Assembly (NCBI GenBank): GCA_947165505.1
Contig: CAMVAT010000017.1
Location: 7,253-71,252 of the forward strand
DNA from: an uncultured Prevotellaceae bacterium
Lineage (GTDB): Bacteria; Bacteroidota; Bacteroidia; Bacteroidales; Bacteroidaceae
Direction: 5' to 3'
DNA: 64,000 bases
The notes beneath the pieces are model-generated. The model saw only the letters and a list, made by a program, of their open reading frames with translations, was not told the DNA's origin and searched no databases. The translations under genes and the position numbers were made by a program. Shown one piece after another: positions 4,953 through 57,905 of the stretch. Within the stretch, counting starts at the first letter, position 1. The number at the start of each line of letters is the position of its first letter.

Positions 4953-5628
4953 TGTTGTCTGTTTTATAGGTTCATTGTTGATGAATGTGTTGATGAAATG
5001 TTTACTTGACCACCATTTTTTTGCCTTTGATGATATATAGGCATATGAAGAAAGGTATGATTCTTTTCATGAAATGGGGTGTAAAGGTTTTCGTGTGCAA
5101 AGATATGAAATCTGTCTTAAGCTGGCAAACGAATTTCCAAAATTATGCACGCGCGCACATGATATCGGCCGAAGGCAGACATCTTTCCCCCACGCAACCC
5201 TCCCATGGGAGGGCTTCCAACCCCTCTCTAAATCTCTCCCCAATCCTTGGGAAGAGACTTAACCGCTCCTACCCGTCGCTCTTTCACTAAGGTATGCTCG
5301 GCCCATCAGAGGGCCGGCATCATTGTTTTTGTTCGCATCGCTCACCGCGCTGTGACAAATGTCATATCAAGCCTAAGGCGTACCACGAATTCCCATAAAA
5401 AACCATGAATGAATCAATAATAATTGATGTAAAATTTGTGGCCATTTTTGTTAATTCATGTAGCGTCGCAGACATGCCCCTCGGCCGTGGGCCGACCAAT
5501 TCCTTGATTCCTATTTTCCGTAGAATCCATACCCCATCGGTCGAGGCCGAATATTAGCATCCGTTAGCATCCGTGATTTTGATTTGCATATTATGCTGTG
5601 AAAATTTGAAAATGTCATTTATTTTCAT

Positions 5629-11500: not shown

Positions 11501-11532
11501 GGAGTATAGGAGTATAGGAGTATAGGAGTATA
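11501..11532. repeat. tandem octamer GGAGTATA x4
   Basis: Four perfect tandem copies read directly from the sequence. Confidence 0.95.
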
Positions 11533-11563
11533 GACAATAGTTATTGCAATTGTACCACATATC

Positions 11564-11638
11564 TCCTACCACCTGCCCCTTGCCCCCTGCCCCAAAACTA
11601 TCCTCCTACCTCCTGCCCCTTGCCCCCTGCCCCTAAAA
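11564..11638 (-). repeat. two tandem ~35-nt copies (40-nt period) of the G-tract module (sense strand GGGGCAGGGGGCAAGGGGCAGG), abutting the FKBP stop codon
   Basis: TCCTACC(A/T)CCTGCCCCTTGCCCCCTGCCCC(A/T)AAA occurs at 11564-11597 and again at 11604-11638. The stop codon is at 11639-11641. Confidence 0.95.
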
Positions 11639-12499
11639 TTATTTTATCTCTTCCAACTCCACGGTGAAGATAAGTGCCGAATAGGGGGGTATTTTTCCTG
11701 CCGGCCGTGAGCCGTATGCCAGTTCCTGGGGGATGTATATCTCCCATTTGCTGCCTACGGGCATCAGTGTGAGTGCCTCGGTCCATCCTTTGATGACCTG
11801 CTTGGGCGTGAACTCGTTGGTCTGCGGGTTGCGCGTATATGAACTGTCGAAGACGGTTCCGTCGATGAGCTTCCCTTCGTATTTCACCACCACACGGTCG
11901 TTTTCTTTCGGCACGGGTCCGTTGCCCTTGCGCAGCACTTTGTATTGCAGCCCGCTGGGGGTCACGACGACCCCTGCTTTCTTGGCATTCTCGGCCAGAA
12001 AGCGCTCACCGGCCTTGCGGTGTGCGTTGCGTGCTTCGGTCATCACCTCTTTTGCCGTCCGGGCATTCATCACCGTGGTGTCTTTCTGCAGAGAGGCGAT
12101 GAAACCGCGGTGAAACAGGGCAGTGTCGATGGTGTCGGTAGCGGCCTTCACCTCGCCGCCGATGCCTGGTATCATGCGGCTTACGGCCATCTGCGCCACT
12201 TGCACGCCTGCGCTATAGGCATTGAGCCGCGGGTCGTTGTGCCGTGCCACAGCCTCTTCGTATCCACGGACAAATTCATCCATCTGACTCTCATCCACAT
12301 TGAAGTTTTGTTTCAGAAACTCCATGAGTCCTTGTGTGGCGCTATTGCCTGCGGCATAGCTGATGGAGTCGGCGGGAGTGGCGAGCACGACAGACTGCGA
12401 CGCCTTGGTCTTTTTCTTCTTGTTCTTATCGCCTGCTGACAGGGGATTGAAAGAAGCACCCGCCAAGATGACGAGTGCCAAAAGGATGATTTTCTTCAT
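11639..12499 (-). CDS. FKBP-type peptidyl-prolyl cis-trans isomerase (FkpA/FklB-like), secreted
   Basis: Signal peptide, an FKBP_N dimerisation helix region, and a C-terminal FKBP domain ...[19 protein letters not shown]...[26 protein letters not shown]. Confidence 0.85.
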
Positions 12500-14154: not shown

Positions 14155-14226
14155 CAATATTTTCACGATTACCTTATTATATTTGAAAAAAAATGCGTAT
14201 TTTTGTACTTTGTTAAGAAAATAAAA

Positions 14227-14298
14227 GAGGTGAGAGGTAAGGGGTAAGAGGTGAGAGGTATGCCAAGAACACTAAACACTAAACACTAAACACTCAAC
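14227..14298 (+). repeat. two adjacent heptad arrays: GAGGTGA/GAGGTAA/GGGGTAA x5, then AACACTA x3 plus AACACTC
   Basis: Read directly. The arrays end 13 nt before the cobB ATG. Confidence 0.95.
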
Positions 14299-14311
14299 AA
14301 CCAATAGAATC

Positions 14312-18648: not shown

Positions 18649-20511
18649 ATGGCAGAAAAATTGGAAGTGAAAGAACTCGACCAAGTGGTAGTGCGGTTCT
18701 CCGGCGACTCCGGCGACGGCATGCAACTGGCCGGCAACATCTTCTCGACCGTGTCGGCCACCGTCGGCAACGGCATCTCCACGTTTCCCGATTACCCGGC
18801 AGACATCCGCGCCCCGCAAGGGTCGCTCACAGGTGTGAGCGGTTTCCAGGTGCACATCGGCGAAGGAAAGGTATATACCCCCGGCGACCAATGCGACGTG
18901 CTGGTGGCAATGAACGCCGCCGCGCTGAAGACACAATATAAGTATGCCAAGCCGCAGGCCACCATCATCATCGACACCGACAGCTTCGGCCCGAGCGACC
19001 TGAAGAAGGCGCAGTTCGCCTCCGACGACTACCTGGGCGAGATGGGCATCGACCCCGACCGCGTGGTGCAGTGCCCCCTGACAACGATGGTGAAAGACTG
19101 CCTGGCCGACAGCGGCATGGACAACAAGGCTGTGCTCAAGTGCCGTAATATGTTCGCCCTGGGACTGGTGTGCTGGCTGTTCGACCGCGACCTGTCGCTG
19201 GTGGCCAATTTCCTGCGCGAGAAGTTCGCCAAGAAACCTGCCATCGCAGAGAATAATATCAAGGTGGTGCAGGCCGGCTACGACTATGGCCACAACACAC
19301 ACTCGTCGGCCATCAATGTCTATCGCATCGAGACCAAGCAGAAAGAGCCCGGACGATACATGGACATCACCGGCAACAAAGCCACAGCCTACGGCTTCAT
19401 CGCCGCCGCCGAGAAAGCAGGACTGAAACTCTACTTAGGCTCCTACCCTATCACACCTGCCACCGACGTGCTGCACGAACTGTCGAAGCATAAGTCGCTC
19501 GGCGTGACCACCGTGCAGTGCGAAGACGAGATCAGCGGCTGCGCCTCGGCACTGGGAGCCTCGTTTGCCGGCGCCCTGGGCGTGACATCGACATCCGGAC
19601 CGGGCATCTGCCTGAAGTCGGAGGCTATGAACCTGGCCGTCATCATGGAACTGCCGCTCGTGGTGCTCGACGTGCAGCGCGGAGGCCCCGCCACGGGACT
19701 GCCCACCAAGTCGGAACAGACCGACCTGCTGCAAGTGCTCTTCGGCCGCAACGGCGAGAGCCCCATGCCCGTGCTGGCCGCTACCAGTCCGGCCGACTGC
19801 TTCGACGCTGCCTATCAGGCTTGCAAGATCGCCCTGGAGCACATGACGCCTGTGGTGCTGCTCACCGATGCCTACGTGGCCAACGGCTCCGGCGCCTTCA
19901 AACTGCCCGACATCACTCGTCTCGACGCCATCTGTCCTCCCTACGTGCCCGAGGAGCTCAAAGGTAAGTGGACACCCTACATGCGCGCCGACAACGGCAC
20001 CCGCTACTGGGCTGTGCCGGGACGTGAGGGCTTCACACATATCCTGGGCGGTCTGGAGAAAGACTCTGCCACAGGTGCCATCTCGACCAACCCCGAGAAC
20101 CACGACCTGATGACACGTCTGCGCCAGCAGAAGATACAGAATATCGAGGTGCCCGACCTGGAAGTGGAGGGCGATGCCGCCGACGCCGACCTGCTCATCG
20201 TGGGCTTCGGCTCTACCTACGGTCATCTGCACGCGGCGATGGACGAGTTGCGCGCACAAGGCAAAAAGGTGGCGCTGGCTCAGTTTAAGTACCTCAACCC
20301 GCTGCCCAAGAACACCCCCGAGGTGATGAAGAAATACAAGCGGGTGGTGGTGGCCGAACAAAACATGGGCCAACTTGCCGCATACCTGCGCATGAAGGTC
20401 GATGGTTTCGTTCCCTGCCAATACAACGAGGTGAAAGGACAACCCTTTGTGGTGGGCGATATCGTAGCGCACTTAGCCCCCCTCCTTTCCTCCCCCGAGG
20501 GGGAGGCATAA
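18649..20511 (+). CDS. korA: 2-oxoglutarate (2-oxoacid):ferredoxin oxidoreductase subunit alpha
   Basis: The N-terminus VVRFSGDSGDGMQLAGNIFSTVSATVGNGISTFPDYPADIRAPQGSLTGVSGFQVHIG (gamma-like domain) is fused to the alpha domain (GSYPITPATDVLHEL). The last ~12 codons are encoded by a repeat hairpin. Confidence 0.85.
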   Translation: MAEKLEVKELDQVVVRFSGDSGDGMQLAGNIFSTVSATVGNGISTFPDYPADIRAPQGSLTGVSGFQVHIGEGKVYTPGDQCDVLVAMNAAALKTQYKYAKPQATIIIDTDSFGPSDLKKAQFASDDYLGEMGIDPDRVVQCPLTTMVKDCLADSGMDNKAVLKCRNMFALGLVCWLFDRDLSLVANFLREKFAKKPAIAENNIKVVQAGYDYGHNTHSSAINVYRIETKQKEPGRYMDITGNKATAYGFIAAAEKAGLKLYLGSYPITPATDVLHELSKHKSLGVTTVQCEDEISGCASALGASFAGALGVTSTSGPGICLKSEAMNLAVIMELPLVVLDVQRGGPATGLPTKSEQTDLLQVLFGRNGESPMPVLAATSPADCFDAAYQACKIALEHMTPVVLLTDAYVANGSGAFKLPDITRLDAICPPYVPEELKGKWTPYMRADNGTRYWAVPGREGFTHILGGLEKDSATGAISTNPENHDLMTRLRQQKIQNIEVPDLEVEGDAADADLLIVGFGSTYGHLHAAMDELRAQGKKVALAQFKYLNPLPKNTPEVMKKYKRVVVAEQNMGQLAAYLRMKVDGFVPCQYNEVKGQPFVVGDIVAHLAPLLSSPEGEA

Positions 20512-20972
20512 TTACCTCTGCAAATGAGCTATGATTACCAAACAGCAGACCCTATGTTATACAGTCTGTTGAAGGATTTAGCCAAAAAGAATCGTGAGCA
20601 TCCCACTCCTGCCGAGTCAGCTCTTTGGAAATTCCTGAAAAACAATGCCCTGGGATGCACCTTTAAGAGACAACATATCGTAGGTGCTTATATCGCTGAT
20701 TTTATCTGCATCCAGGCAAGGTTAATCATTGAGATAGATGGTGGATACCATCAACTGCCCGAACAGCAAATCAGTGATTTGGAGCGTCAACAATGGCTGG
20801 AGTCTCAAGGTTTCAAGGTAATCAGATTCACCAATGAAGAGGTAATGGCAGACATTGAGCGAGTAATAGATACAATAGAACGTTTTACATAGCCAACAAA
20901 GAATACATGGAATCAAATATCAACAACAACAGTAATTATTCCTCCCCCTCGGGGGAGGCCAGGTGGGGGGCT
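20475..20972. mobile_element. candidate mini-cassette: a DUF559 gene bounded by ~37-bp inverted repeats
   Basis: The left arm at 20475-20511, reverse-complemented, is TTATGCCTCCCCCTCGGGGGAGGAAAGGAGGGGGGCT. The right arm at 20936-20972 is TTATTCCTCCCCCTCGGGGGAGGCCAGGTGGGGGGCT. The enclosed gene is AT-richer by hand count: about 40% G+C in its first 60 nt versus about 57% in the last 60 nt of korA. Confidence 0.4.
20524..20892 (+). CDS. DUF559 (Vsr/PD-(D/E)xK-fold) endonuclease-domain protein
   Basis: PTPAESALWKFLKN...FKRQHIVGAYIADFICIQARLIIEIDGGYH...QWLESQGFKVIRFTNEEV is the typical DUF559 pattern (D...E.DG..H, then R.. and V.RF.N). Confidence 0.8.
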   Translation: MSYDYQTADPMLYSLLKDLAKKNREHPTPAESALWKFLKNNALGCTFKRQHIVGAYIADFICIQARLIIEIDGGYHQLPEQQISDLERQQWLESQGFKVIRFTNEEVMADIERVIDTIERFT

Positions 20973-22022
20973 TCTGACATCAACAACAACAGTAACTATT
21001 CCTCCCCCTCGGGGGAGGCCAGGTGGGGGGCTTCTGACTTCAAAAAAGGGCAGCCCCGTTGGTGTCCCGGTTGTGGCGACCACTTCTTCCTGGCATCACT
21101 CCATAAAGCATTGGCCGAGATAGGCGTGGCTCCCTACGACACCGCCGTCATCTCTGGCATCGGCTGTTCCAGCCGTCTGCCCCACTACATGGCTACCTAC
21201 GGCATGAACACCATCCACGGGCGCGCTGCCGCCATCGCCACAGGCGCCAAGGTGGCCAACCCCCGCCTCACCATATGGCAGGTGAGCGGCGACGGCGACG
21301 GTCTGGCTATCGGCGGCAACCACTTCATCCATGCCAACCGCCGTAATATCGACCTCAATATGATTCTGCTCAACAACCGCATCTACGGTCTGACCAAGGG
21401 ACAGTACTCACCCACCTCACCGCGCGGATTCGTGTCGAAGTCGAGCCCCTACGGCACCGTCGAAGACCCGTTCCGCCCGGCTGAACTGTGCTTCGGCGCA
21501 CGCGGACATTTCTTCGCCCGTGCCGTAGCCACCGACACCGCCGGCACGGTAGAGGTGCTCAAGGCCGCCTACGAGCACAAGGGCGCCTCGGTGTGCGAGA
21601 TACTGCAAAACTGCGTCATCTTCAACAATGGCACGCACGACTTGGTCTATACCAAGGAGGGACGTAAGAAAAACGCCATCTACGTGCGCCACGGCGAGAA
21701 ACTCGTGTTCGGCGAGAACAACGAATACGGCCTGGTGCAGGACGGCTTCGGCGTGAAGGTAGTGAAGATAGGCGAAAACGGCGTCACCCTCGACGATATC
21801 CTGGTGCATGACGCCCACTGCCAGGACAACACCTTGCAGCTGAAGCTGGCTATGATGACACCCGAAGACGGATTCCCCATCGCCCTCGGCGTCATCCGCG
21901 ACGTGGAGGCTCCCACCTACGACGCTGCCGTGCACGAGCAGATTGCAGAGGTGAGCGCACAGAAGAAATACCACAACTTCACCGAACTGCTCGAGACCAA
22001 CGACATCTGGGAGGTGAAATAG
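20907..22022 (+). CDS. korB: 2-oxoglutarate:ferredoxin oxidoreductase subunit beta (TPP-binding)
   Basis: RWCPGCGDHFFL, GIGCSSRLPHY and GDGDGLAIGGNHFIHANRRN (TPP-binding GDG...N). The only in-frame ATG is at 20907, so about 45 N-terminal residues come from cassette and repeat sequence. Confidence 0.85.
   Translation: MESNINNNSNYSSPSGEARWGASDINNNSNYSSPSGEARWGASDFKKGQPRWCPGCGDHFFLASLHKALAEIGVAPYDTAVISGIGCSSRLPHYMATYGMNTIHGRAAAIATGAKVANPRLTIWQVSGDGDGLAIGGNHFIHANRRNIDLNMILLNNRIYGLTKGQYSPTSPRGFVSKSSPYGTVEDPFRPAELCFGARGHFFARAVATDTAGTVEVLKAAYEHKGASVCEILQNCVIFNNGTHDLVYTKEGRKKNAIYVRHGEKLVFGENNEYGLVQDGFGVKVVKIGENGVTLDDILVHDAHCQDNTLQLKLAMMTPEDGFPIALGVIRDVEAPTYDAAVHEQIAEVSAQKKYHNFTELLETNDIWEVK
20919..21038 (+). 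repeat. 60-bp tandem duplication (2 units, 1 mismatch) inside the 5' end of korB
   Basis: ATCAACAACAACAGTAA(T/C)TATTCCTCCCCCTCGGGGGAGGCCAGGTGGGGGGCTTCTGAC occurs at 20919-20978 and again at 20979-21038. It is translated as INNNSNYSSPSGEARWGASD twice. Confidence 0.95.
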
Positions 22023-31725: not shown

Positions 31726-33075
31726 TTATCTATTATTCGTGATGCTCCGGCCGGCACACACCAGCAGCACCCTGCTGCCGTCGGCGCGGGTGGTGGCGAA
31801 GAGGTAATGGCTGCCGCCGTCGGCCAGACGCAGGCGGCGGCGCAGGTCGGCCACCGACAGGGGGAAATTCCTGACGGTGATATTGGCGCGCTCGATGCCA
31901 CAGAGGGCGTCGCGCAGGTCGCGCTTGTTGAGCGTGCTCTCACGGTCGATGCGAAACTGCCGCCCGGGGAAGTCGGCCACCGGCGCATCACTCACCAAGA
32001 GATGGCTGTTGGCGGCGATGGCCCGCAGACCGTAGCGCCGGCATACCTCGCCAAAGCACCCGGCTTTCATCAATGCCGCATTCGGCTCACAGAGCCAGCG
32101 GCCATCAAGCCGCTCACCTCCCTCTACGATGGGCACGGCTATCCCCTGTCCCTGATCCGGACAGTAGGTAAACACCTGTTCGTCGTTGACACAATCTATC
32201 TTCAGGTGAGAGCATTGTCCGTGTGGCTGCCCCTCTTGAGCGTCCTCCTCTTTGTCAGTTGATAGTGGAGATACGATTACGAGAAGCTCCTTGCACTCAT
32301 TGCCCGTGGCCACGATATGCACCTCGCGTACCACATCGGCCCCCGCGGCAAGATTCAGCTCTGCCACCACCTGGTGCCAGTCGAGCATGGGCGAGAGCTT
32401 CAGCATGACACAAGCGGCACGCTGCAACAACAGTGGCATCAGCCGGCACACATCGGGTGTGCAGTCGGCGATGGCGTAGGTGCGCTGCCCATGCTCGTCG
32501 CGCCGCGCCGGGTCGGCATAGATGAGCGAGGCGTAGGGCAACGTGGGCAACAACTCGGCAGAGTCGCCACAGAGCACTTCGGTCTGCCGCAATCGCAGCA
32601 GGGCGAAGTTGTGCCGTGCGATGTCACAGAGCTCTGACTGCCTCTCTATATAAAAGGTACGCGCGAAGTGCGTGGCCAGGGCGGCATGGTCGATGCCGAA
32701 ACCGCCCGTCAGGTCTATCAGTATCTTTTCAGCCTCGTGGGCTGCCTCGCCGTCAGCAACACCAGGGTGCGCCATCCATCTGCGGACCAGTTCGGCTTTA
32801 TAACGTGCGGTCTGCTCAGACGAGCATTGCTCCATGGCCAACTGCGGAGGGTAGATAATGCCCTCGACAGCGGTCCAGGAGGGCAGTTTGGTGCGTGCCT
32901 TCTGCCATCCGGCTATCTGCTCCACCACCCACCGGCGGTCGATACCAGGCTGCTTGGCGGCCTTCAGCGCCACCTCGCGCACATCCTCCTCACGATGGGC
33001 AAGGATGAAAAGCGTTGAGTGTTGAGTGTTGAGTGTTGAGTGTTCGCTTCGCGATGAAAAATTGAGAATTGCCAA
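31726..33075 (-). CDS. class I SAM-dependent methyltransferase with a THUMP-like C-terminal domain
   Basis: LIDLTGGFGIDHAALA (motif I) and LIYADPARRDEHG (motif IV-like). The first ~22 codons (MAILNFSSRSEHSTLNTQHSTL) are encoded by AATTGCC and CACTCAA tandem repeats, so the true start is uncertain. Confidence 0.7.
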   Translation of the reverse strand: MAILNFSSRSEHSTLNTQHSTLFILAHREEDVREVALKAAKQPGIDRRWVVEQIAGWQKARTKLPSWTAVEGIIYPPQLAMEQCSSEQTARYKAELVRRWMAHPGVADGEAAHEAEKILIDLTGGFGIDHAALATHFARTFYIERQSELCDIARHNFALLRLRQTEVLCGDSAELLPTLPYASLIYADPARRDEHGQRTYAIADCTPDVCRLMPLLLQRAACVMLKLSPMLDWHQVVAELNLAAGADVVREVHIVATGNECKELLVIVSPLSTDKEEDAQEGQPHGQCSHLKIDCVNDEQVFTYCPDQGQGIAVPIVEGGERLDGRWLCEPNAALMKAGCFGEVCRRYGLRAIAANSHLLVSDAPVADFPGRQFRIDRESTLNKRDLRDALCGIERANITVRNFPLSVADLRRRLRLADGGSHYLFATTRADGSRVLLVCAGRSITNNR

Positions 33076-33145
33076 TTGCCAATTTAGAGGTTAGAGGTTA
33101 GAGGTATGAGGTAAGAGACGAGTTGTTGAACGACAGTGAAAAATA
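33014..33145. repeat. stack of tandem heptads (GTTGAGT x4, AATTGCC x2.5, TAGAGGT x4) plus a 33-nt unique arm; left copy of a 61-bp inverted repeat
   Basis: Read directly. 33085-33145 matches the reverse complement of 34301-34361 at 57 of 61 positions. Confidence 0.95.
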
Positions 33146-33184
33146 ACTTCGTTGCAGAGAAAGATAAATCGAGAATCAATCAAC

Positions 33185-33216
33185 AAGTAGGGACAGGGCA
33201 CGCCCTGTCCCTACTT
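33185..33216. repeat. palindrome AAGTAGGGACAGGGCACGCCCTGTCCCTACTT (REP-like hairpin)
   Basis: Near-perfect 32-nt palindrome. Related copies lie at 34231-34256, 57716-57741 and 57773-57798, with half copies at 41596-41613 and 58353-58366. Confidence 0.95.
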
Positions 33217-33255
33217 ACGTGGCGAGGCTTTATAACTGCGCCCCAACAGTAATCA

Positions 33256-33290
33256 CAAAGCTCAAAGTTCAAAGCTCAAAGTTCAAAGTC
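33256..33290. repeat. tandem heptads CAAAG(C/T)T x5, abutting the lemA stop codon
   Basis: CAAAGCTCAAAGTTCAAAGCTCAAAGTTCAAAGTC, read directly. Confidence 0.95.
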
Positions 33291-33292
33291 CC

Positions 33293-33880
33293 TTAGAACT
33301 TCACCTGCGGTGCTTTCTGTGCGCCCTCTTCTGCTTGGAACGACTCGGTTTTTTCAAATCCGAACATACCCGCCAGCAGGTTGGTGGGGAACGAGCGCAC
33401 CGACTTGTTGTACTCTGCTACAGTACTGTTGAAAGCGTTGCGCGCCTCGTTGATGCGGTTCTCGGTACCCTCCAACTGGTGTTGCAGGTCGAGGAAGTTC
33501 TGGTTAGCTTTCAGGTCAGGATAGCTCTCACCCACAGCAATGAGTTTACCCAGTGCGCCACCCAGTTCGCTCTGTGCCTGCTGGAAGGCCTTGATCTGCT
33601 CGGGAGTGGCATTGGCCAGATCCACCTGTGTCTGCATGGCTTTGGCACGAGCCTCAACCACCGACTTCAATGTTTCCTCCTCGTGTTTGGCATAGCCTTT
33701 CACCGTCTCCACCAGATTAGGCACCAGGTCGGCCCTGCGCTGATAGGCCGACTGCACATTGGCTGAGGCCTTCTCCACCTCTGTCTGTTTGCTCACCAAT
33801 CCGTTGTACGAACTAAATCCCCAAATGGCTGCTACCGCCACGATTGCGATCAGCACCATCAATGATTTACTGATTTTCAT
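33293..33880 (-). CDS. lemA: LemA family protein
   Basis: An N-terminal TM helix followed by GLVSKQTEVEKASANVQSAYQRRADLVPNLVETVKGYAKHEEETL, the LemA signature. Confidence 0.9.
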   Translation of the reverse strand: MKISKSLMVLIAIVAVAAIWGFSSYNGLVSKQTEVEKASANVQSAYQRRADLVPNLVETVKGYAKHEEETLKSVVEARAKAMQTQVDLANATPEQIKAFQQAQSELGGALGKLIAVGESYPDLKANQNFLDLQHQLEGTENRINEARNAFNSTVAEYNKSVRSFPTNLLAGMFGFEKTESFQAEEGAQKAPQVKF

Positions 33881-33916: not shown

Positions 33917-34361
33917 CACAATGCACAATGCACAATGCTTCCGTTCGGGTGGAACCAGCGGTCGGCGGCCGAAGGGAAAGCCAATTGCAATCCACCCGCA
34001 GAGAGCAGATGGATTTGCAATCCATCCACTATTATTCTTTCCCCACCCAACCCTCCCATGGGAGGGCTTCCAACCTATCCCTAAACCCCTTCCCAATCCC
34101 TAAGAAGGGACTTAACCGCTCCTACCCGTCGCTCGTTCACTAAGGTACTGCTCCCTTTTTCTGCCGGTCGCAGTATTGTTTTAGGCAACAGAGTTGCGAT
34201 TATTTGTGTTCGCTCCGCTCACCGTGCTGCGGACAGGGCACGCCCTGTCCCTACTTGCGTGGAGAGCATATCTCCTGCCCCCTGCCCCTCGCCCCAAAGC
34301 TATTTTTCACTGTCGCTCAACAACTCGTCTCTTACCTCTTACCTCTTACCTCTTACCTCTA
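33917..34361 (-). repeat. largest composite repeat element; it fills the TPM-lemA spacer
   Basis: Module order in the sense (minus) direction: TACCTCT heptads, unique arm, G-tract, palindrome, the ~190-nt element also present at 5184-5352, GGATTTGCAATCC, the GGTGGAACC...TCCACC hairpin (also at 41649-41697), and CACAATG x3. Confidence 0.9.
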
Positions 34362-35919: not shown

Positions 35920-38900
35920 ATGAAAAAACTATTACTGTTATTGATGGCGGTATTGGCCTCGGTCGGGGTCAATGCGGCGAAGTTTACTTGGACGTCTGAC
36001 GACGGACAGTACACTGTGACGGCTTCTAACGTCGGAGATGAGACCCAGAAACTGGAGGTCAATAAAGAAGGGGCTTTAGCCGCATTCGTTAAGGCAACGA
36101 AAGACTTAAGCGATTCCGAGGGCGGCTCATTGAAAGGTGTCGGTGGCAACAGCCAGCGCGTCAACTTGATCGTAGAAGGTCCGATGGGCGCTGACGACTT
36201 CAAGGCGATGAACTCTTCTACAGTTTCACGCTGGGGTAATTTCAAGAACATCGACCTAAGCAGTGCCACCATTTCGGGCATCGGCGACATGGGCGATATG
36301 AACCTGAGTGGATTGGAATATCTCCGTCTGCCCAATGGTCTGACCAGTGCTAAAGATGTACAGTTGATGTCAACATTGAAAGATGGTGGGAAAAATAACA
36401 ACTTGAAGATTGCTGGAGCCGTCAACTCGGAAGATAAGACGGCCTATTCGCTTCACTCTTTCTCTTCCAACAATGTACAGAATTTTCTTGATATATTCTT
36501 TGGAGGCTATAATGCCGTAGGAGCCGGCGAGGCGCCAGAGAAGAGCATGGTGCGTATGTCCGGCAACCTTGGTGACAAGGATTTGGTAGGTGGCAACGGC
36601 ACAGGCGGATTGAATTTCGGCAAGGTGTTAGCTTTTGACTTCACCGGTGCCACTTTTGATCCTTATACCATTCCTAAACTGTCTGTCTCTGGTTATACTG
36701 ACCCCGAGCATCCTTACGCAAGAGGGAAGGGTGATTCTGCGCCAAACGACCCGTTTGCCGAACCCGATATTAAGGGTACTATGGTGCTTGATGGATATGA
36801 AACCAACGCTCTGTATTTTATCAACGGCTACGAGATGTTCACTTCTATCATCCTGCCCACAGGCAACAATGACATACCCCCGCAGGCCTTTAAGGACAGA
36901 ACTGCACTCACAAGCATCTCTATCCCCGAAAACTATATCACGATAGGTCATGAGGCTTTTCTCCATTCAGGTATCACCGAAGTGGTGATTGGTAAGAATG
37001 TAAAGACGATTGAAGCTGGTGCTTTTACGAATTGTACGGAACTGCAGGATGTAAAATTCCAGCCAGGCCTGGATGACCAGATCTATGGACCAAGCGTATT
37101 TTATAACTGTCAGAACATCAAGCACATCGTACTGCCAGAAGGTATTAAAACATTAGGTGCCTTTATGTTCTCTGTTAGTAAGGAGGTTGAGTCTGTCCGT
37201 CTTCCTGAGACCCTGGAAAACATCGGAACAGGATGTTTTTGGGATTCAGAGTCGCTGAGCTCTATCACGTTGCCTTCAAACGTGAAAAAGATAGGCAAGC
37301 GAGCTTTCTGTTTGACCAGTATCAAAGATATTTATCTTACAGTGCAAGACCCAGAAAAACTGCCGATGATTTTTACACTGGGTTCAAACTTTGAAAATGG
37401 CGATCAGGATGCATCGTTTGGAACGAATGTCATCAACAACAATGGCTCAAACGGAAAAGAAAAAAAGACACATGCAGAAATAGCCAGTGAGACCTGGGAA
37501 GAAGCATGTCTGGATTTTTACTATGTGAATGGTACTGCAACATTGCACTACCCAGAGACATTGGCAGAAAAAGTGCGTGAGGATATTTCTCTTCGATATG
37601 CTCATACCACATCAGATGGTGGAAAAATCCCTGATCGTAACACTTGGGTAGATGGTTATTCTCAAGAAAGAGCTTGGAGTGACTTCGCTCTCCGTACTAC
37701 AGTAGATAATAGCGGAACTATAGGCACAAATGGTAAAGGTGTCTGGAGCACAGATGGTTGGGCTCAATTCTTGCTGATGGGGGCTTACGATCCTCACACG
37801 GAAACCATCGTTCACACCAAGGAATATGATGATGTGTGGTACACAATGTGCTTCCCCTTCGACCTCACCGATGAGCAACTGGCTACGGCTTTCAATGAGG
37901 GCTTTAATATCGTTGACTTCAGTGGCGTTGAAATAAAAGAGGCAGAGGAAACGGTGGACAACAAGAAAACGCTGATTCTGCACTTCAATACCGTAGGACA
38001 AACGGAATATCGAGATGAGGATAACAATGTCTATAACAAATTGGAAAAAGACGCAGACGGCTTTAATATCTTCGAACGCAATGGCGACAGATATGTGCAC
38101 TATTTAATTGCTAAGGCACCAGGCGCTAAAACCTATGTAAAGCAGGGCACCAAAGAACCTGTTTGCTATATTGAGGGTTACTTGGCTACTGCCGGACACC
38201 CCTACATGGTGCACCCGAACACTGGCACCTCTCCGGGCCAGCCGAAAGTGGCATGCCACTTCTCGGGCATCAAATGGATTGAGAGTACAGACGATAGCAA
38301 AACGACAGATGAGGTGCGTGCTGAGTTGTTTGAGGCCCGGAAACGTATGATTGACTTGGGCGTGGAAAAGAAAACAGACAACTATGTACAGGAGGCATAC
38401 GAAGGTTATAGCGGTCAGACTTACACTTTCAAGGGCAACCACAAAGTCTATAGAGATGGTTGGGAGTCCGATCCCGAGGTAGCAGATGAACCTCAATTCA
38501 CCATCGATTTCCCAGAAGTACCCGTCCAACCGACACCCGTTGAACCAAGCACACCCGAAATAACTGAGATACCCGTTCAAGGTGAAAACCCGCGGGATGA
38601 TAAAACCACCTATCCGGATGCATTCCAGACACTGTATGATACGGATTGGACTGATTATTATTATGATTCTAATACAGGTGAACGTTATGGAAACGGTCAA
38701 CCTAATTCTGCAACATACGGATTCATTCTTACCATAGCAAATTGGGATGCCAATACGTTCCAATGGAAGGTTCCCCTGAGGAGTTATTTTAATACAGGTG
38801 ATGCTGCCATAACAGAGGCACAATTCAATCAAGCAAAAGCAAAAGCAATAGCATTTAAAGATGCCCTTGACGACTATAATAGCTATGATGCCAAACTCGC

Positions 38901-39489
38901 AGCATACAATGCCAGCAAAAAGGAATGGGATGATTATCGAGCAGCACTCAGTTGGAATCAAGAGGAAGAAGAAGCTAAATACACAGCAGCGTTGAAAGCC
39001 TATCAAGATGCCTGGGATCAATATGTAATAGATCATGCGGCTTGGGAGCAGAAAATGGCTAATTATGGCATACTGATTCCTAAAAACGCTTACTTCCTTG
39101 GTCGTAGGAGGGCTACAGACTTTCCTAAATACTACCGCGAGATTGCCGATGACAGCACACCGCGCACCACTGGCCTGTGGACACAATACACAGCCATCGT
39201 TATGCCCAACGATGCTGCAGTAGCCGGCATCGAGGCTGAACTCGACGGCAAGAAGGCATCGGCCAACGGATTTAACATGGTCATTGACGAGAATTTCACT
39301 GCCGAGATGGTGACACCCACTCAGATCAAGCAAATCGTGGCCGAAGCCGAGGAGAATGGCGAGAAGGTGGAGTACATGAAAGTGGTGTACAACATCAACG
39401 GACAGGTGGTGCGCGAAGGCGACACCTCACTCGAGGGACTGCCCAAAGGCATCTACATCGTGAACGGCAAGAAATATTTTGTTCGCTAA
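35920..39489 (+). CDS. BspA-type leucine-rich-repeat surface protein with a T9SS C-terminal sorting domain
   Basis: Signal peptide MKKLLLLLMAVLASVGVNA. LRR_5-type repeats (ISIPENYITIGHEAFLHSGITEVVIGKNVKTIEAGAFTNCTELQDVKF, IVLPEGIKTLGAFMF, VRLPETLENIGTGCF, ITLPSNVKKIGKRAF). C-terminus VVYNINGQVVREGDTSLEGLPKGIYIVNGKKYFVR. Clearly AT-richer than its neighbours. Confidence 0.8.
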   Translation: MKKLLLLLMAVLASVGVNAAKFTWTSDDGQYTVTASNVGDETQKLEVNKEGALAAFVKATKDLSDSEGGSLKGVGGNSQRVNLIVEGPMGADDFKAMNSSTVSRWGNFKNIDLSSATISGIGDMGDMNLSGLEYLRLPNGLTSAKDVQLMSTLKDGGKNNNLKIAGAVNSEDKTAYSLHSFSSNNVQNFLDIFFGGYNAVGAGEAPEKSMVRMSGNLGDKDLVGGNGTGGLNFGKVLAFDFTGATFDPYTIPKLSVSGYTDPEHPYARGKGDSAPNDPFAEPDIKGTMVLDGYETNALYFINGYEMFTSIILPTGNNDIPPQAFKDRTALTSISIPENYITIGHEAFLHSGITEVVIGKNVKTIEAGAFTNCTELQDVKFQPGLDDQIYGPSVFYNCQNIKHIVLPEGIKTLGAFMFSVSKEVESVRLPETLENIGTGCFWDSESLSSITLPSNVKKIGKRAFCLTSIKDIYLTVQDPEKLPMIFTLGSNFENGDQDASFGTNVINNNGSNGKEKKTHAEIASETWEEACLDFYYVNGTATLHYPETLAEKVREDISLRYAHTTSDGGKIPDRNTWVDGYSQERAWSDFALRTTVDNSGTIGTNGKGVWSTDGWAQFLLMGAYDPHTETIVHTKEYDDVWYTMCFPFDLTDEQLATAFNEGFNIVDFSGVEIKEAEETVDNKKTLILHFNTVGQTEYRDEDNNVYNKLEKDADGFNIFERNGDRYVHYLIAKAPGAKTYVKQGTKEPVCYIEGYLATAGHPYMVHPNTGTSPGQPKVACHFSGIKWIESTDDSKTTDEVRAELFEARKRMIDLGVEKKTDNYVQEAYEGYSGQTYTFKGNHKVYRDGWESDPEVADEPQFTIDFPEVPVQPTPVEPSTPEITEIPVQGENPRDDKTTYPDAFQTLYDTDWTDYYYDSNTGERYGNGQPNSATYGFILTIANWDANTFQWKVPLRSYFNTGDAAITEAQFNQAKAKAIAFKDALDDYNSYDAKLAAYNASKKEWDDYRAALSWNQEEEEAKYTAALKAYQDAWDQYVIDHAAWEQKMANYGILIPKNAYFLGRRRATDFPKYYREIADDSTPRTTGLWTQYTAIVMPNDAAVAGIEAELDGKKASANGFNMVIDENFTAEMVTPTQIKQIVAEAEENGEKVEYMKVVYNINGQVVREGDTSLEGLPKGIYIVNGKKYFVR

Positions 39490-39508
39490 AAGAAAGGAGG
39501 ATACAGCA

Positions 39509-39760
39509 ATGAAAAAACACTATATCAAACCCGAAGTGGAGATAACGGCACAATGGTTTGAAAGCCATCTATGCGCCGGCACTGAAACAGGACAGCGCAT
39601 GGCCGACTGGGGTGCTAAAGGCGTCAACGACTACAGCAACAGCGCCTGGGATAATGAAGGATGGGGAAACACCACCACCCCGGTGATTATCGCTGGCGAT
39701 GACAACGGTGAACTCAATTCTACCGGTAACCAATACAACCTCTGGGAAGATGAGGATTAG
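39509..39760 (+). CDS. small acidic hypothetical protein (83 aa), no signal peptide
   Basis: MKKHYIKPEVEITAQWFESHLCAGT...NLWEDED. The ATG lies 20 nt after the LRR stop, preceded by AAAGGAGGA. Its last 11 nt overlap the next gene's start. Coding status unproven. Confidence 0.45.
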   Translation: MKKHYIKPEVEITAQWFESHLCAGTETGQRMADWGAKGVNDYSNSAWDNEGWGNTTTPVIIAGDDNGELNSTGNQYNLWEDED

Positions 39761-41381
39761 CCTGATGCTGATGACTCTGGGCCTGATGCTGCCGATGGCG
39801 GCACAGGCCCAAAGTTTCTCCGACAACTGGACACTGCCGTTCATTGCCGGAGAATTGGCGCCTGTGGCCCATACGCAAGAAGCGACATCTACGAGGCGGG
39901 CAGCTGCCGACGGAGTCTATTACCTGCGCCCGGAGGGGGCCTTCTACCAAGGCATGAGACCGCAAAACTGGTCGTACTACCCTGTGACGAAGATCATCGT
40001 CACACCGTGGCAGGCGTTCACCTACGAGAACCGCTGCACCACCACAGCACAATGGAGCATCGAGGGCAAGGACGTGAGCGCAGATGCCGACGGCCACTAC
40101 ACCGAGACCATTGAGCCCATCCCCGACGGATACATCGACCACTACCTGCCTACCGTCACGGCGGGCGATAAGAGTTACACGCTGGGCGAGGGACACGAAA
40201 ACTGGACCAAATACCACGGATGTATCGCCTGGGCCGACAGCATCGTCGAGATGGCTGTCTTTGACCCCGGACGTGTCATCCGACGGAGCGGCACGACGGT
40301 ATATACCAATTTCCGACCGCTGTCGATGACCGAAGGCCTGCGCTATAACTACGGCACCATGAGCATATCATCTGACGGCGACACCTACTACAGCCGAGGC
40401 GTCAGGCAGACATTCGAGAAGCCGATGGGCCGCCTGTGGGTGCAAGAGGTGACCATCCCGGCCATCAGCTATGCCGAGACGCTGCTGCCCGACGGGAAGG
40501 CGCTCACCATGACCATCAGCACCACCGCCGATGGCGAGACGGCGGCTGCGACGCTCGCCACGCTCACCTGCACGCCGGCCGACATCCTCATGATCGGATC
40601 GCAAAACGTGGGCGGCAACAAAGTGACGATGGCTTCACTCAGGTTTCACGCCGCCGACGAACTGGTCATCGACCAACCGTTTATCATCGAGATAGAGGGG
40701 TTCCAGCAAGAGGGGGTTGACATCGGGCTGGCGGCTGCACTCATCGACCCGTGCGACCAAGAGCGATGCCACACCGCACTCATCACGCTGCAGGATGAGA
40801 ACCATCAGGACATCAATGCCACTACATCGTATGCCGACCGGGTGCCCTGCATCAGTATCCGCGGTATGTACGACGGCATCAAGATGCTGACCGACGACGA
40901 TGCGCTGCAGCTGACGGCTCCCACCGAAGGCGGCGCATGCACGCAAGAGGGTGGCAACACGCCGGCCAAGATACAGCTGAAGACGGCCATCAGATGGAAC
41001 TACGGACTGGCTGATGCCAACTACACCATCGAGGGCCTGCCCGACTGGCTGCACGCCACGGTGGATGAAAGCCGGCGTGAGTTCAGCGGAGGGCAATTCG
41101 GCCACGGACAGGTGACTCTCTCCTTCACGGCCGACAACACACCCGACAACACACCCGACCGCAAGGCGACGCTCTACATCAAAGGGCGGGGCGTACAGAC
41201 CACCACACCCATCGTCGTCAGGCAAAAGGGCACATGGGTTGACGCCATTACAGAAACAGGCATCCTACCGGCAGATGAGCCGGATGAAGCCATCTACAAC
41301 CTGAACGGCCAACGTATCAACAAACCTGCGAGAGGCATTTATATCAAAGGAAAGCAAAAAAAGATAAAAAGGAATATATAA
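39750..41381 (+). CDS. secreted protein with a BACON-like domain and a T9SS-type C-terminus
   Basis: Signal peptide MRISLMLMTLGLMLPMAAQA-QS. BACON-like segment GQVTLSFTADNTPDNTPDRKATLYIKGRGVQTTTPIVVRQKG. C-terminus AIYNLNGQRINKPARGIYIKGKQKKI. Confidence 0.6.
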   Translation: MRISLMLMTLGLMLPMAAQAQSFSDNWTLPFIAGELAPVAHTQEATSTRRAAADGVYYLRPEGAFYQGMRPQNWSYYPVTKIIVTPWQAFTYENRCTTTAQWSIEGKDVSADADGHYTETIEPIPDGYIDHYLPTVTAGDKSYTLGEGHENWTKYHGCIAWADSIVEMAVFDPGRVIRRSGTTVYTNFRPLSMTEGLRYNYGTMSISSDGDTYYSRGVRQTFEKPMGRLWVQEVTIPAISYAETLLPDGKALTMTISTTADGETAAATLATLTCTPADILMIGSQNVGGNKVTMASLRFHAADELVIDQPFIIEIEGFQQEGVDIGLAAALIDPCDQERCHTALITLQDENHQDINATTSYADRVPCISIRGMYDGIKMLTDDDALQLTAPTEGGACTQEGGNTPAKIQLKTAIRWNYGLADANYTIEGLPDWLHATVDESRREFSGGQFGHGQVTLSFTADNTPDNTPDRKATLYIKGRGVQTTTPIVVRQKGTWVDAITETGILPADEPDEAIYNLNGQRINKPARGIYIKGKQKKIKRNI

Positions 41382-41516: not shown

Positions 41517-41921
41517 AAGAGGTGAGAGGATAGTTGAGGGGCAGGGGATTTCTGAGGGGCGGGGAGCAAGGTGCAAGGGGCAGGAGATTACTTTGCCGCC
41601 CTGTCCCTACTTCCAAGCACTAAACCCTCAACCCTACCCCTCCGTTCAGGTGGAACCAGCGGTCGGCGGCCGAAGGGAAAGCCAATTGCAATCCACCTGA
41701 GTAGAAGAAAAAGCATTTGCAATGCTGCTCTCGGATTTCAAATCCTGTATTCCATGCGTCAGGATTACAAATCCCGACGAACGGGGACTTTGAACATTGA
41801 ACATTGAACTTTATGATTACCTCTCTATCCCCCATTTATCGTGATAGGCGTACTATCTGCTCCCCTCCCTACAAGGGAGGGGCTGGGGGGTGGGTCTGAT
41901 TGCAACTAAACCCTCAACCAA
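41517..41921 (+). repeat. composite repeat element filling the leader of the fructan regulator
   Basis: Module order: AAGAGGTGAGAGGA, G-tract 41537-41588, half palindrome, CACTAAACCCTCAACCC, the GGTGGAACC...TCCACC hairpin, three GGATTNNNAATCC-type palindromes, TTGAACA x2.5, the CCCCTCCC-TACAA-GGGAGGGG hairpin, and CTAAACCCTCAACCAA abutting the ATG. Confidence 0.9.
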
Positions 41922-53304: not shown

Positions 53305-53527
53305 GGGCAGGGAGCAGGGGGCAGGAGATATGCTCCGAGCACCCCGCAATAAACCAGGAATAACCCCGGAAATTCCGGAGAAACCGGAATTCCGGAAAAT
53401 CCGCCGCCCCCCCGAAAGCCCCCTCAACCCTAAACCCTAAACCCTCAACCCTAAACCCTCAACCCTCAACCCTAAACCCTCAACCCTCAACCCTCAACCC
53501 TAAACCCTAAACCCTCAACCCTCAACC
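53304..53527 (+). repeat. composite repeat filling the GH32-MFS spacer, ending in 15 tandem CCCT(C/A)AA heptads
   Basis: G-tract starting at the G of the TAG stop codon, then ATGCTCCGAGCACCCCGCAATAAAC, CCGGAAATTCCGG and CCGGAATTCCGG palindromes, then the heptad array at 53421-53525. The ATG is at 53533. Confidence 0.95.
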
Positions 53528-54711: not shown

Positions 54712-54752
54712 AACATTCCCCTTCATCCCCCTCGGGGGATAAGAGGGGGGCT
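54712..54752 (+). repeat. solo copy of the CCCCCTCGGGGG-hairpin / GGGGGGCT element
   Basis: CCCTTCATCCCCCTCGGGGGATAAGAGGGGGGCTCCC has the same layout as the arms flanking the DUF559 gene. Confidence 0.85.
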
Positions 54753-57440: not shown

Positions 57441-57595
57441 TTCTCTTTGCTTTTTTTGAGTTAGTAATACAATTTGTCTCTCTCTGTCTTATTCAGACGG
57501 TGCAAAGATAACGTCAAATGATGCTCCGCTCCAAATCTTTTCCCTCACGCTGTATGAAATGCCCCCTTTTTTGTACGAAATGGAGGGCTTCTTTG

Positions 57596-57905
57596 TTGAG
57601 GGTTGAGGGTTGAAGGTTGAGGGTTGAGGGTTGAGGGTTGAAGGTTGAGGGTTGAGGGTTTAGTGTTGAGGGTTCTAGCAGGGTTTTTGTTGAGGGTTGA
57701 GTGTTGAGTGTTTGGAAGTAGGGACAGGGCGTGCCCTGTCCGCAAGAAGCCGGCATTTGATATTCTCACTACGGACAGGGCACGCCCTGTCCCTACTTGC
57801 GCGGAAAAGTAATCTCCTGCCCCTTGCCCCCGGCCCCTCAGAAAAACCCCTGCCCCTAAGCTATCTACTCCCCTCCCTACAAGGGAGGGGCGGGGGTGGG
57901 TCTGC
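57596..57905 (-). repeat. composite repeat filling the ybeY-lipoprotein spacer
   Basis: Module order in the sense (minus) direction: CCCCTCCC hairpin (it holds the ybeY stop codon), G-tract 57811-57856, two palindrome copies 57773-57798 and 57716-57741, CTTCCAAACACTCAACACTCAAC, then 11 heptads (plus strand TTGAGGG/TTGAAGG/TTTAGTG) at 57596-57672. Confidence 0.95.

Follow-up and report, generated by a model that had tools for sequence, protein, structure and literature searches.

The DNA analysed here is a stretch of 64,000 nucleotides (the window, at its full length) from contig CAMVAT010000017.1 of an uncultured Prevotellaceae bacterium (GCA_947165505.1, contig positions 7,253 to 71,252). 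Its subject is a small gene of the nuclease family DUF559, which is enclosed by inverted hairpin repeats (the arms) and lies with them, as a cassette, between korA and korB, the genes of the alpha and beta subunits of a 2-oxoacid:ferredoxin oxidoreductase. The three genes follow one another head to tail in the order korA (18649-20511), DUF559 gene (20524-20892) and korB (20907-22022), separated by spacers of 12 nt and 14 nt, and the features of the locus are as follows (L and P numbers are working handles).

18649..20511, plus strand: korA, 2-oxoacid:ferredoxin oxidoreductase alpha subunit (TIGR03710, POR/POR_N)
20456..21022, plus strand: polymorphic block without homology to L084 (blastn of the window against L084)
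20475..20515, plus strand: left arm, made of the C-run AGCCCCCC, the spacer TCCTTT and the hairpin CCTCCCCC-GA-GGGGGAGG, then CATAATTAC
20524..20892, plus strand: DUF559 gene, YcjD-like, Vsr-fold PD-(D/E)XK, 122 aa (PF04480)
20907..21038, plus strand: cassette-borne korB start codon and 44-codon leader (MESN and two copies of INNNSNYSSPSGEARWGASD), the sole in-frame start
20919..21038, plus strand: tandemly duplicated 60-bp unit, 2 copies (repeat search)
20932..20972, minus strand: right arm copy 1, an inverted copy of the left arm, CCTCCCCC-TC-GGGGGAGG, spacer CCAGGT, GGGGGGCT
20992..21032, minus strand: right arm copy 2, whose outer end GTGGGGGGCTTCTGAC, from 21023, is kept as a scar in a same-species PDDEXK_3 allele
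21039..22022, plus strand: conserved core of korB (FKKGQPRWCPGCGDH... to the stop), Pfam TPP_enzyme_C, 83-91% identity to 80 genome loci

The korA locus, the inserted gene and the new protein termini

The product of korA matches the NCBIfam model TIGR03710 at 652.7 bits (cut-off 482.75), and the Pfam models POR and POR_N match as well. Its C-terminus reads ...VGDIVAHLAPLLSSPEGEA*, of which the final 11 codons and the stop (20479-20511) are supplied by the left arm, and the tail that is native to relatives, ...AFEDILKK*, is replaced. The open reading frame (ORF) of the DUF559 gene has a guanine-plus-cytosine (GC) content of 42%, against 60-61% in korA and the korB core. At the other side of the gene, the ATG at 20907 is the only ATG, GTG or TTG in the korB frame between the upstream in-frame stop (ending at 20858) and the CPGC motif. 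Since this is the only available start, a leader of 44 residues precedes FKKGQPRW, and it passes in frame through both copies of the right arm. That is to say, the KorB of the window has 371 aa, compared with 332-336 aa in relatives, and the leader stands in place of about 7 native residues. The 60-bp duplication within the leader is also found in other strains (P0123, L003).

A first-pass annotation of the window had already placed a 369-nt, AT-richer DUF559 gene between korA and korB, had let the left arm provide the last residues and stop of KorA, and had put the sole in-frame ATG of korB inside the cassette, with a gain of about 45 N-terminal residues; the ORFs, the match to PF04480 and the start-codon scan bear out each of these points. 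It had also named a non-ATG start of KorB beyond the repeats as an outcome that would speak against it, and no alternative start lies downstream in the korB frame.

The arms as repeats of the BoxC/PIT class

Both arms are copies of a 41-nt element, AGCCCCCC-N6-CCTCCCCCGAGGGGGAGG-NATANTTAC, which occurs at 20475-20515 (+), 20932-20972 (-) and 20992-21032 (-) and in none of 100 shuffles; its 18-nt core has 7 matches in the window, where 0.05 would be expected. The inverted pair is 88% complementary over 41 nt, and the two units of the tandem duplication are 98% identical. The first-pass annotation was right about the inverted pair and about the position of the right arm within the 60-bp tandem unit, and the arms are slightly longer than the roughly 37 bp it had given.

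In structure the arms follow the block pattern of the BoxC/PIT repeats, with TCCTCCCCC-tc-GGGGGAGGC-ca-GGTGGGGGG at 20940 and 21000 and the same series of blocks on the minus strand of 20479-20506. It has been reported that these motifs, also called 'TM' (intrastrand-triplex) motifs, are known from E. coli and from over 260 genomes, are intergenic and often form inverted doublets; they are tied to genomic instability and described as 'not associated' with mobile elements, and DUF559, ycjD or any endonuclease go unmentioned (Holder et al. 2015, PMC4666352). The E. coli consensus, TMECO (CCCTCNCCC-N3-6-GGGNGAGGG-N3-GGGNGAGGG), is not fitted by the arms, in which the blocks differ and the loops have 2 and 6 nt, and the arms are not strictly intergenic, overlapping the 3' end of korA and the 5' end of korB. 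Judged by their blocks, the arms are members of the BoxC/PIT class, as a class of sequence in which the triplex is putative, and share this class without belonging to the E. coli family. Earlier descriptions reportedly go back to Bergler in 1992, for E. coli boxC, and to Hoyne and Maher in 2000.

Because a palindromic stem equals its own reverse complement, only the loop and the flanks are informative about the relation between the two arms. The left and right loops are GA and TC in the window and in L086, L097, L102, L085, L036 and L089, TT and AA in L060, AA and TT in L052, and AC and GT in L056, where the right-arm loop has 3 nt (TGT) and was read as GT; L106, with GA and GC, is the sole mismatch. 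The right loop thus complements the left in 10 of 11 loci, and the loops co-vary, as befits arms that are true inverted repeats of one another. The 6-nt spacers are non-complementary, each being conserved on its own side: the left one is TCCTAA or a variant, which gives the korA stop codon in some frames, and the right one is CAGGT or a variant.

Several other identities were considered for the arms and rejected. No Rfam family matched above threshold. For a role as promoter or terminator, no signal rose above that of shuffled sequence, and the hairpins have no T-run behind them. An integron-type cassette does not fit either, the arms being inverted, not direct attC-like sites, and no integrase lying nearby. 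Sub-threshold Rfam matches to the whalefall-1 RNA motif were seen at 20938-21020 (20.8 bits) and 20476-20509 (17.1 bits), the gathering score being 37; this motif, found in metagenomes only, may itself be a repeat of the arm hairpin class.

The native junction and its other occupants

The state of the junction in relatives was read from the 80 korB-bearing genome loci, which belong to rumen and gut Prevotella, Xylanibacter and relatives; the source species lies outside this sample, in which the best KorB identity is 91%. Junction length was measured between the point where conserved korA ends and the codons for FKKGQ. In 46 of the 80 loci it is at most 62 nt, and the junction is empty with native ends on both sides: the consensus is ...AFEDILKK* with the stop TAA, about 10 nt, and ATG AGT TAT ACA GCA CAA GAT. 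KorB homologues as a rule begin MSxYTAQD(F/Y)KKGQPRW. This is the empty site for which the first-pass annotation had advised a search in related genomes. A further 21 junctions, of 63-260 nt, hold short repeat debris or solo arms, and 13, of 468-780 nt, hold a gene cassette. The empty junction is the ancestral state, because it is spread across the whole tree, including Bacteroides, Barnesiella and Paraprevotella. Compared with it, the cassette of the window has replaced about 45 nt of native sequence, namely the last codons and stop of korA, the spacer of about 10 nt and the first 7 or so codons of korB. A target-site duplication, which had been suggested for inspection, was not found; the native sequence is replaced, not split.

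The 13 long junctions contain three unrelated small genes, each with inverted arms of its own. Four of them (L036, L052, L056, L060) have DUF559 with C-run/hairpin arms. Seven have a GxxExxY/PDDEXK_3 gene between inverted octamer arrays, (ACGAATTA)n ... (TAATTCGT)n, and two have a PF05635 four-helix-bundle gene ('23S rRNA intervening sequence') between (TTAAGAG)n and (CTCTTAA)n; the NCBIfam models TIGR04256 and TIGR02436 confirmed the latter two gene classes. In 3 of 3 sampled cases a PDDEXK_3 homologue at 71-74% identity lies at the kor junction, so that a site-bound lineage exists in this class, too.

The turnover of the site is best seen within one species. L084, a metagenome contig of 204 kb from the same species, shows 98-99% DNA identity to the window in a collinear arrangement and has a PDDEXK_3 gene between korA and korB. 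In a blastn comparison the identity is 98.8% up to 20455, homology then stops, and it resumes at 99.3% from 21023. The polymorphic block between these points takes in the 8 last 'native-position' codons of korA (GDIVAHL), both inner arms and the DUF559 gene. The korA of L084 has its native end (...VVAELTASFEKLL*), and the korB leader of L084, MEKNNISVDVKTQWGASD, ends in GTGGGGGGCTTCTGAC, that is, in the outer end of the right arm of the DUF559 cassette. From this scar it follows that turnover at the site has taken place within a single species. The two alleles differ in the last 8 codons of korA and are about 99% identical in the remainder, a pattern that is compatible with co-conversion. Other small-gene cassettes are able to displace the DUF559 cassette. 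The view that an inverted-repeat cassette landed in the korAB operon without breaking it, both protein termini being rewritten, is supported by the empty sites and by L084.

Traces of such events are also visible in the lengths of KorB. About 27 of the best 120 KorB homologue clusters are longer than the native protein (our own count, lengths above about 340 aa), and many of the sampled long leaders encode hairpins (SPSGEARWGAS, SPSLGEG, APSGAEGG).

Some further observations concern the other occupants. The PDDEXK_3 gene (about 125-130 aa) was seen between korA and korB in L007, L010, L023, L026, L045, L053, L081 and L084 and in L246-L257; the arrays of L084 are (ACGGATTTC) and (GAAATCCGT). 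Unlike the DUF559 cassettes, the PDDEXK_3 cassettes keep the native korA stop, and they also keep the native korB start except in L084. In L254-L256 (3021-5357), the korB behind one PDDEXK_3 lineage is called as short or split (300 aa, or 201 + 92 aa) and is followed by a 335-aa ORF without a Pfam match, which may reflect decay or duplication. PF05635 cassettes occur in two species (L020 and L039, frameshifted in L039), L013 retains only a solo right arm, and protein P0237 is a called fusion of the PF05635 protein with KorB. At the kor junction of one Prevotella (L055, 6615-6787) both hairpin arms are present, spanning 171 nt, the DUF559 gene is absent and the termini of KorA and KorB are rewritten; the locus represents a gene-less doublet or else a cassette that has decayed. 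The metagenomic KorB homologues P0121, P0122 and P0124 (450-536 aa) have internal duplications of 100-200 residues, which are probably assembly artefacts.

Distribution and movement of the DUF559 cassette

Exact matches to the DUF559 protein of the window came from three short metagenome contigs alone; these share the korA context and end in or just before the right-arm repeat. Homologues at 61-73% identity lie between korA and korB with both arms in 5 of 5 cases looked up, two of which are misnamed in databases (as metH and gmk). Together, the homologue look-up and a further six loci reached via KorB give 12 distinct species-level DUF559 loci at the kor junction, and left and right arms are present in all 12. 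Every sampled homologue at 57-73% identity sits at korA|korB, and a tblastn search with DUF559, PDDEXK_3 and PF05635 through the 10-kb flanks of related loci, 1.4 Mb in all, found no copy off the kor junction. On this sample the DUF559 lineage appears to be bound to one junction. The first-pass annotation had advised a search for DUF559 copies with the same arms elsewhere, which gave none in this kor-flanking DNA, and it would have been contradicted by relatives that all had the gene without the arms; instead, the arms are present at 12 of 12 loci and many relatives lack the gene.

In a neighbour-joining tree of KorA and KorB (the trees are simple neighbour-joining trees or identity matrices), the DUF559 loci are scattered among sisters with an empty site: L102 pairs with L004, L013 and L006, L097 with L005 and L011, and L056 with L076. 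With the native stop, spacer and start lost to the cassette, plain deletion cannot remake the empty site. The identity of DUF559 correlates weakly with that of Kor (rho=0.38): the DUF559 of the window is closest to that of L086 (70%; Kor 84%), and it shares 59% with that of L106, whose Kor identity is 91%. The arm subtype GCCCCC-GA-GGGGGC is common to L036, L089 and L106, whose DUF559 proteins cluster (66-70%) and whose hosts do not, and the left junction falls at no fewer than two positions of korA, either behind the codons that correspond to ..AF or behind the complete native tail. Scattered loci, weak correlation, clustering by arm subtype and a variable left junction together show that the gene and both arms move as a unit, which travels between host lineages and is patchily distributed among rumen Prevotella. 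The simplest route for such a transfer would be homologous recombination in the conserved kor flanks.

The reading frames have been preserved throughout. The korB leader is in frame at 11 of 11 analysed loci, running from an ATG a few nt from the DUF559 stop through the right arm into (S/A/N)D(F/Y)KKGQ, and the arm duplications are multiples of 3 (60 nt in the window, 36 nt in L085). KorA reads into the left arm at 9 of 11 loci; the tail APLL(T/S)SPEGE(E/A)* is common to four loci, and two more have near variants.

The DUF559 protein

The product of the DUF559 gene matches Pfam PF04480 at 117.6 bits (cut-off 20.6; E=3e-34) over profile positions 4-106 of 109, and its nearest solved structure is PDB 3HRL, a DUF559 protein of Neisseria (E=1.6e-16). 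With the NCBIfam YcjD model NF007294 it scores 78.9 bits, under the equivalog cut-off of 218, and it is a relative of E. coli YcjD, not an equivalog. The motifs ..ADF.. and ..E-x-D-G-x-x-H.. are present, and D59, E70, D72 and H76 are invariant across 11 kor-junction orthologues and aligned with the same residues of 3HRL; the nuclease activity and its target are both predicted. For the ratio of nonsynonymous to synonymous substitution rates (dN/dS), the 4 pairs out of 55 with finite dS give 0.07-0.11, and saturation of dS in the other 51 limits the worth of this measure. The intact ORF, the invariant residues and the low dN/dS point to purifying selection on the gene.

PADLOC gave no system protein match for DUF559, the only likenesses being at domain level to the N-terminus of DpdF (28.8 bits) and to a methyl-directed restriction enzyme, and a defence-system identity for the cassette was rejected. 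A phage or plasmid vector was rejected as well, since only distant homologues (33-44% identity) were found there; some of these phage homologues carry an annotation as homing or HNH endonuclease.

DUF559 genes and BoxC-type repeats in other bacteria

A wider sample consisted of 16 PLSDB replicons and E. coli K-12, from five phyla, which were scanned with a triplex-motif finder (our own heuristic). Triplex repeats were found at the DUF559 gene in 12 of 16 sampled replicons. In flanks of 700 nt they occur in 7 of 8 cases (E. coli, N. gonorrhoeae, Azospirillum, Sphingomonas, Deinococcus aetherius, Sinorhizobium and Pseudanabaena), with none in the 700-nt flanks of the Synechocystis gene. In 40-kb windows they occur in 5 of 8 (Methylobacterium, Photobacterium, Picosynechococcus, Qipengyuania and D. 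psychrotolerans), with none near the genes of Novosphingobium, Sphingobium and Geobacillus. The density of the motif is 20 per 10.4 kb within 500 nt of DUF559 and 49 per 310 kb elsewhere, about a 12-fold difference. Three non-kor metagenomic DUF559 genes (31-43% identity; L109, L143 and L182) are likewise bracketed by inverted and often tandemly duplicated arms, the one in L109 sitting between priA and lipA.

The case of E. coli is of particular interest. The repeat TMECO #9 lies 168 nt downstream of ycjD (1351407-1351760, minus strand), the DUF559 gene of E. coli, and a degenerate copy overlaps the stop codon of this gene (...SPSPQPSP*); this site is the original boxC locus beside fabI/envM. 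In the sample studied, DUF559 is associated with BoxC-type repeats across phyla. A literature search on DUF559, ycjD, GxxExxY and PF05635 together with inverted repeats, boxC or triplex found no paper on such cassettes or on a link between DUF559 and BoxC.

Several details may be added on these loci. The 367-nt spacer between ycjD and fabI (NC_000913.3, 1351040-1351406) holds two to three BoxC copies, of which the first ends YcjD and mirrors the Prevotella arm that ends KorA (L229 640-700, 1020-1275), and a perfect palindrome of 19 bp overlaps the ycjD start codon. In Photobacterium sp. GJ3 (L239), triplex arrays on alternating strands begin about 50 nt after DUF559 (20373-21921, period of about 145 nt, at least 20 units), and a second array lies 18 kb off (38742-39905). 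Distant DUF559 genes were also seen at gene junctions: paaD|paaZ in D. psychrotolerans (L242 19971-20324), gatB/yqeY|dnaG in Sphingomonas (L233 521-1057), priA|lipA on the GC-rich metagenome contig L109 (1963-2247), and between carboxylase subunit genes in Sphingobium (L244 20004-20438). This suggests that DUF559 genes generally prefer conserved gene junctions.

Dispersed repeats in the window and in relatives

Apart from the arms, the window holds five solo elements with the triplex motif.

54712..54752, minus strand: solo element of the arm class, AGCCCCCC-TCTT-ATCCCCC-GA-GGGGGAT, between two co-directional genes
41861..41894, plus strand: solo triplex motif of a second subfamily, TCCCCTCCC-tacaa-GGGAGGGGC-tg-GGGGGTGGG
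57869..57901, plus strand: solo triplex motif, subfamily of the 41861 element
34042..34066, minus strand: solo triplex motif, CCCTCCC-at-GGGAGGG-tt-GGGTGGG
5189..5213, minus strand: solo triplex motif, near-identical to 34042-34066

Three of them had been pointed out at the first pass, one as a solo (54712-54752) and two as hairpins (41862 and 57866); they are real and of the same structural class as the arms. Those at 5189-5213 and 34042-34066 are additional. The 41861 subfamily recurs as inverted doublets in other Prevotella (L053). In the Prevotella flanks there are gene-less inverted doublets of the triplex class, 75-120 nt apart, with complementary loops and the same outside-in arrangement as the cassette arms, and these look like 'empty cassettes'. 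A metagenome scan with the pattern CCCCC-N5-8-CCTCCCCC-NN-GGGGGAGG gave, among the matches listed, about 70 of 80 loci with solo elements, on very diverse contigs.

Tandem arrays of 7-8 nt, such as (GTTGAGG)11, (CCCTCAA)15 and (CTCTTAC)4, stand in many intergenic regions of the window and resemble the arms of the PDDEXK_3 and PF05635 cassettes at kor.

11501-11642, 14225-14299, 33014-33289, 33917-34360, 53341-53527, 57595-57712, 58441-58479, 59001-59045: arrays of 7-8 nt

Some of the arrays form inverted pairs around genes: one such pair (33084-33150, (TTAGAGG)n...CGAGTTGTTGAACGACAGTGAAAAATA, against 34295-34360) encloses an ORF at 33293-33880. Arrays of GGGGCA/GAGGGGCTTTCC type and of (CCAAACTC)n at 43765-44051 lie in frame within an 835-aa ORF (41922-44429), where a repeat of intergenic type is apparently translated inside a protein. 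The perfect palindrome GGGACAGGGCACGCCCTGTCCC, with TAC(T)T flanks, stands beside heptamer arrays at 33190-33215, 34232-34256, 57722-57745 and 57777-57797 and is a further dispersed repeat family of this genome.

Interpretation and rival explanations

The reading that we prefer, with a probability of about 0.6, is that of a compact selfish cassette, in which a YcjD-type DUF559 nuclease gene is held in an inverted pair of BoxC/PIT-type repeats and is resident at korA|korB. Both Kor subunits stay intact because the left arm gives the tail and stop of KorA and the 3' end of the cassette gives an ATG and an in-frame leader, and DUF559 is presumably co-transcribed with korAB. Once its DNA has been taken up by a cell, the cassette would spread by homologous recombination in the kor flanks, which are highly conserved, and the nuclease may promote this by a nick or cut in either the empty junction, in the manner of homing, or its own structured arms, in the manner of RAYT. 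The arm-cutting option would also explain the lasting complementarity of the arms and the adjacency of DUF559 and repeats in other phyla, and a RAYT-like version would further explain the homogenisation of the arms, their frequent tandem duplication and the general pairing of DUF559 with repeats.

Certain points weigh against this reading. Cleavage of the arms or of the empty junction by DUF559 is a predicted activity at a predicted site. The correlation of rho=0.38 means that part of the DUF559 distribution is vertical. Neither a target-site duplication nor a second copy turned up in the genome sample, and transposition is therefore not indicated. Under pure homing the role of the arms is left unexplained, because homing endonucleases need no flanking inverted repeats. 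The solos of the window are unlike the arms in sequence, and solo arm-type elements are not clearly more frequent in genomes with DUF559 (4.2 against 1.8 per 100 kb, on tiny counts). In addition, 4 of the 16 replicons have no triplex repeat within 500 nt of DUF559, in a small sample drawn from PLSDB.

Spread through a single site is what recombination alone would predict, and PDDEXK_3 behaves alike (3 of 3 at kor). It could therefore be supposed that the gene is a passive hitch-hiker or is useful to the host, having arisen once and been shuffled by ordinary kor recombination, with a cellular role and no part in its own spread; such a role might be the processing of triplex- or hairpin-forming repeats to limit their instability. 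The strong purifying selection on DUF559 and the reported link of BoxC-type motifs with genomic instability (PMC4666352) agree with this. A needed function is argued against by the absence of the gene in most close relatives and by its exchange for unrelated genes, and the presence of three unrelated small-gene classes, with two nuclease folds, at one junction is left unexplained; we hold this account to be unlikely. It is less probable still that the arms act at the level of RNA, where a stem in the operon transcript would limit translation of DUF559 or make an RNase III site, as in the 23S rRNA intervening sequences, the inverted repeats being kept by selection on the RNA stem and not by a DNA mechanism. 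The minimum-free-energy fold does pair the left arm with the first right arm around the ORF (-220.8 kcal/mol, z=-6.7), the covariation of the loops preserves left-right complementarity, and the PF05635 '23S IVS protein' cassette with its own inverted arms uses the same site in other species; yet any inverted repeat gives such a fold in silico, cleavage of the stem would strip the korA stop and the korB start and leader, no Rfam family was matched above threshold, and the same repeats flank DUF559 genes outside operons.

Ancestral synteny, in which a single early insertion in Prevotella was inherited vertically and lost many times independently, was already disfavoured and is very improbable. 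The orthologues do share one orientation and one site, the correlation between DUF559 and Kor identity is positive if weak, and the KorA tail is common to four loci, with close variants in two; against this, deletion could not restore the native korA stop, spacer and korB start of the sister taxa, the left junction lies at more than one korA position, the trees of cassette type and host disagree, and two different cassettes exist within one species. We give scarcely any credit to a transposon resembling a miniature inverted-repeat transposable element, whose terminal inverted repeats would serve a transposase from another locus and whose passenger gene would be DUF559. Inverted ends of 41 nt and gene-less inverted doublets of the same repeat class scattered in Prevotella genomes would suit it, but native sequence is replaced without a target-site duplication, no second cassette copy was seen in 1.4 Mb of DNA around kor, the lineage keeps to a single junction, and no transposase is nearby.

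If the selfish-cassette reading is right, the junction of an essential, conserved operon can be a stable niche for small selfish genes, as three unrelated classes, each with its own inverted arms, have used this one; two classes of cassette occur in the same species, and in at least two of the classes there are lineages tied to this site alone. Since the cassette brings an upstream stop and a downstream start and leader, its insertion is tolerated in an enzyme of central metabolism. Cassettes of this kind would account for the odd N-terminal extensions in roughly one fifth of the close KorB homologue clusters. They also link a nuclease family of unknown function, DUF559/YcjD, to the widespread BoxC/PIT class, whose origin is unknown, in an enzyme-substrate hypothesis that is testable in E. 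coli.

A broader and more tentative proposal, which at present we consider doubtful, is that DUF559 (YcjD-type) nucleases are the cognate enzymes of BoxC/PIT repeats throughout bacteria, as a PD-(D/E)XK counterpart of RAYT/REP. The gene-carrying inverted doublet would then be the 'autonomous' form, and singlets and gene-less doublets (the 23 BoxC copies of E. coli, the Prevotella doublets, the solos of the window) would be its non-autonomous progeny or substrates. If true, this would explain how a repeat family arose, and why it is unstable, for which no mechanism has been at hand since 1992.

Comparison with known systems

With the BoxC/PIT/TM repeats the arms share a pyrimidine block, a short loop, a complementary purine block, a second short loop (often TTA, CTA or CAGGT) and a G-rich block, and they share the occurrence as singles and close inverted doublets that mark variable loci. 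They differ in their blocks (CCTCCCCC/GGGGGAGG/GGGGGGCT) and in loops of 2 nt and 6 nt, which lie off the E. coli consensus, and in that they overlap coding ends and enclose a gene, whereas BoxC is intergenic.

The REP/RAYT system (REPIN) is alike in having a single-copy gene of nuclease type within an inverted pair of short structured repeats, and a likely further likeness is the scatter of gene-less singlets and inverted doublets in the genome. Its enzyme is an HUH/Y1 transposase, whereas that of the cassette has the PD-(D/E)XK Vsr fold and no Y1 domain; the repeats are of triplex type, not REP, the dispersed copies of the window are not sequence-identical to the arms, and a biochemical link would be hypothetical.

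Free-standing homing endonuclease genes (the seg/mob genes of T-even phages; I-Bth0305I) are also small nuclease genes between conserved essential genes; close relatives may have them, lack them or hold another nuclease gene in their place, their lineages are site-bound, and divergent flanking codons go along with them. One proven homing endonuclease, the Vsr-like 'EDxHD' enzyme I-Bth0305I (PDB 3R3P; PMC3424549), belongs to the Vsr/DUF559 group. The kor cassette differs in lying in a cellular operon, not a phage, in its inverted repeats and in the rewritten termini of its neighbours, and its cleavage is only predicted.

The 23S rRNA intervening sequences with a PF05635 ORF are short insertions between inverted repeats; they lie within an essential transcribed unit and in some cases hold a small ORF, and a PF05635 cassette uses the same kor junction in other species. 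In contrast, the kor host is an mRNA operon, in which the arms overlap the stop and the start and leader, so that excision at the stem would do harm. Finally, the Rickettsia palindromic elements are internal insertions of solo repeats, whereas the kor repeats extend the termini within a gene-carrying cassette; in both, a palindromic repeat is translated in a host protein without destroying it, as in the tail of KorA and the leader of KorB.

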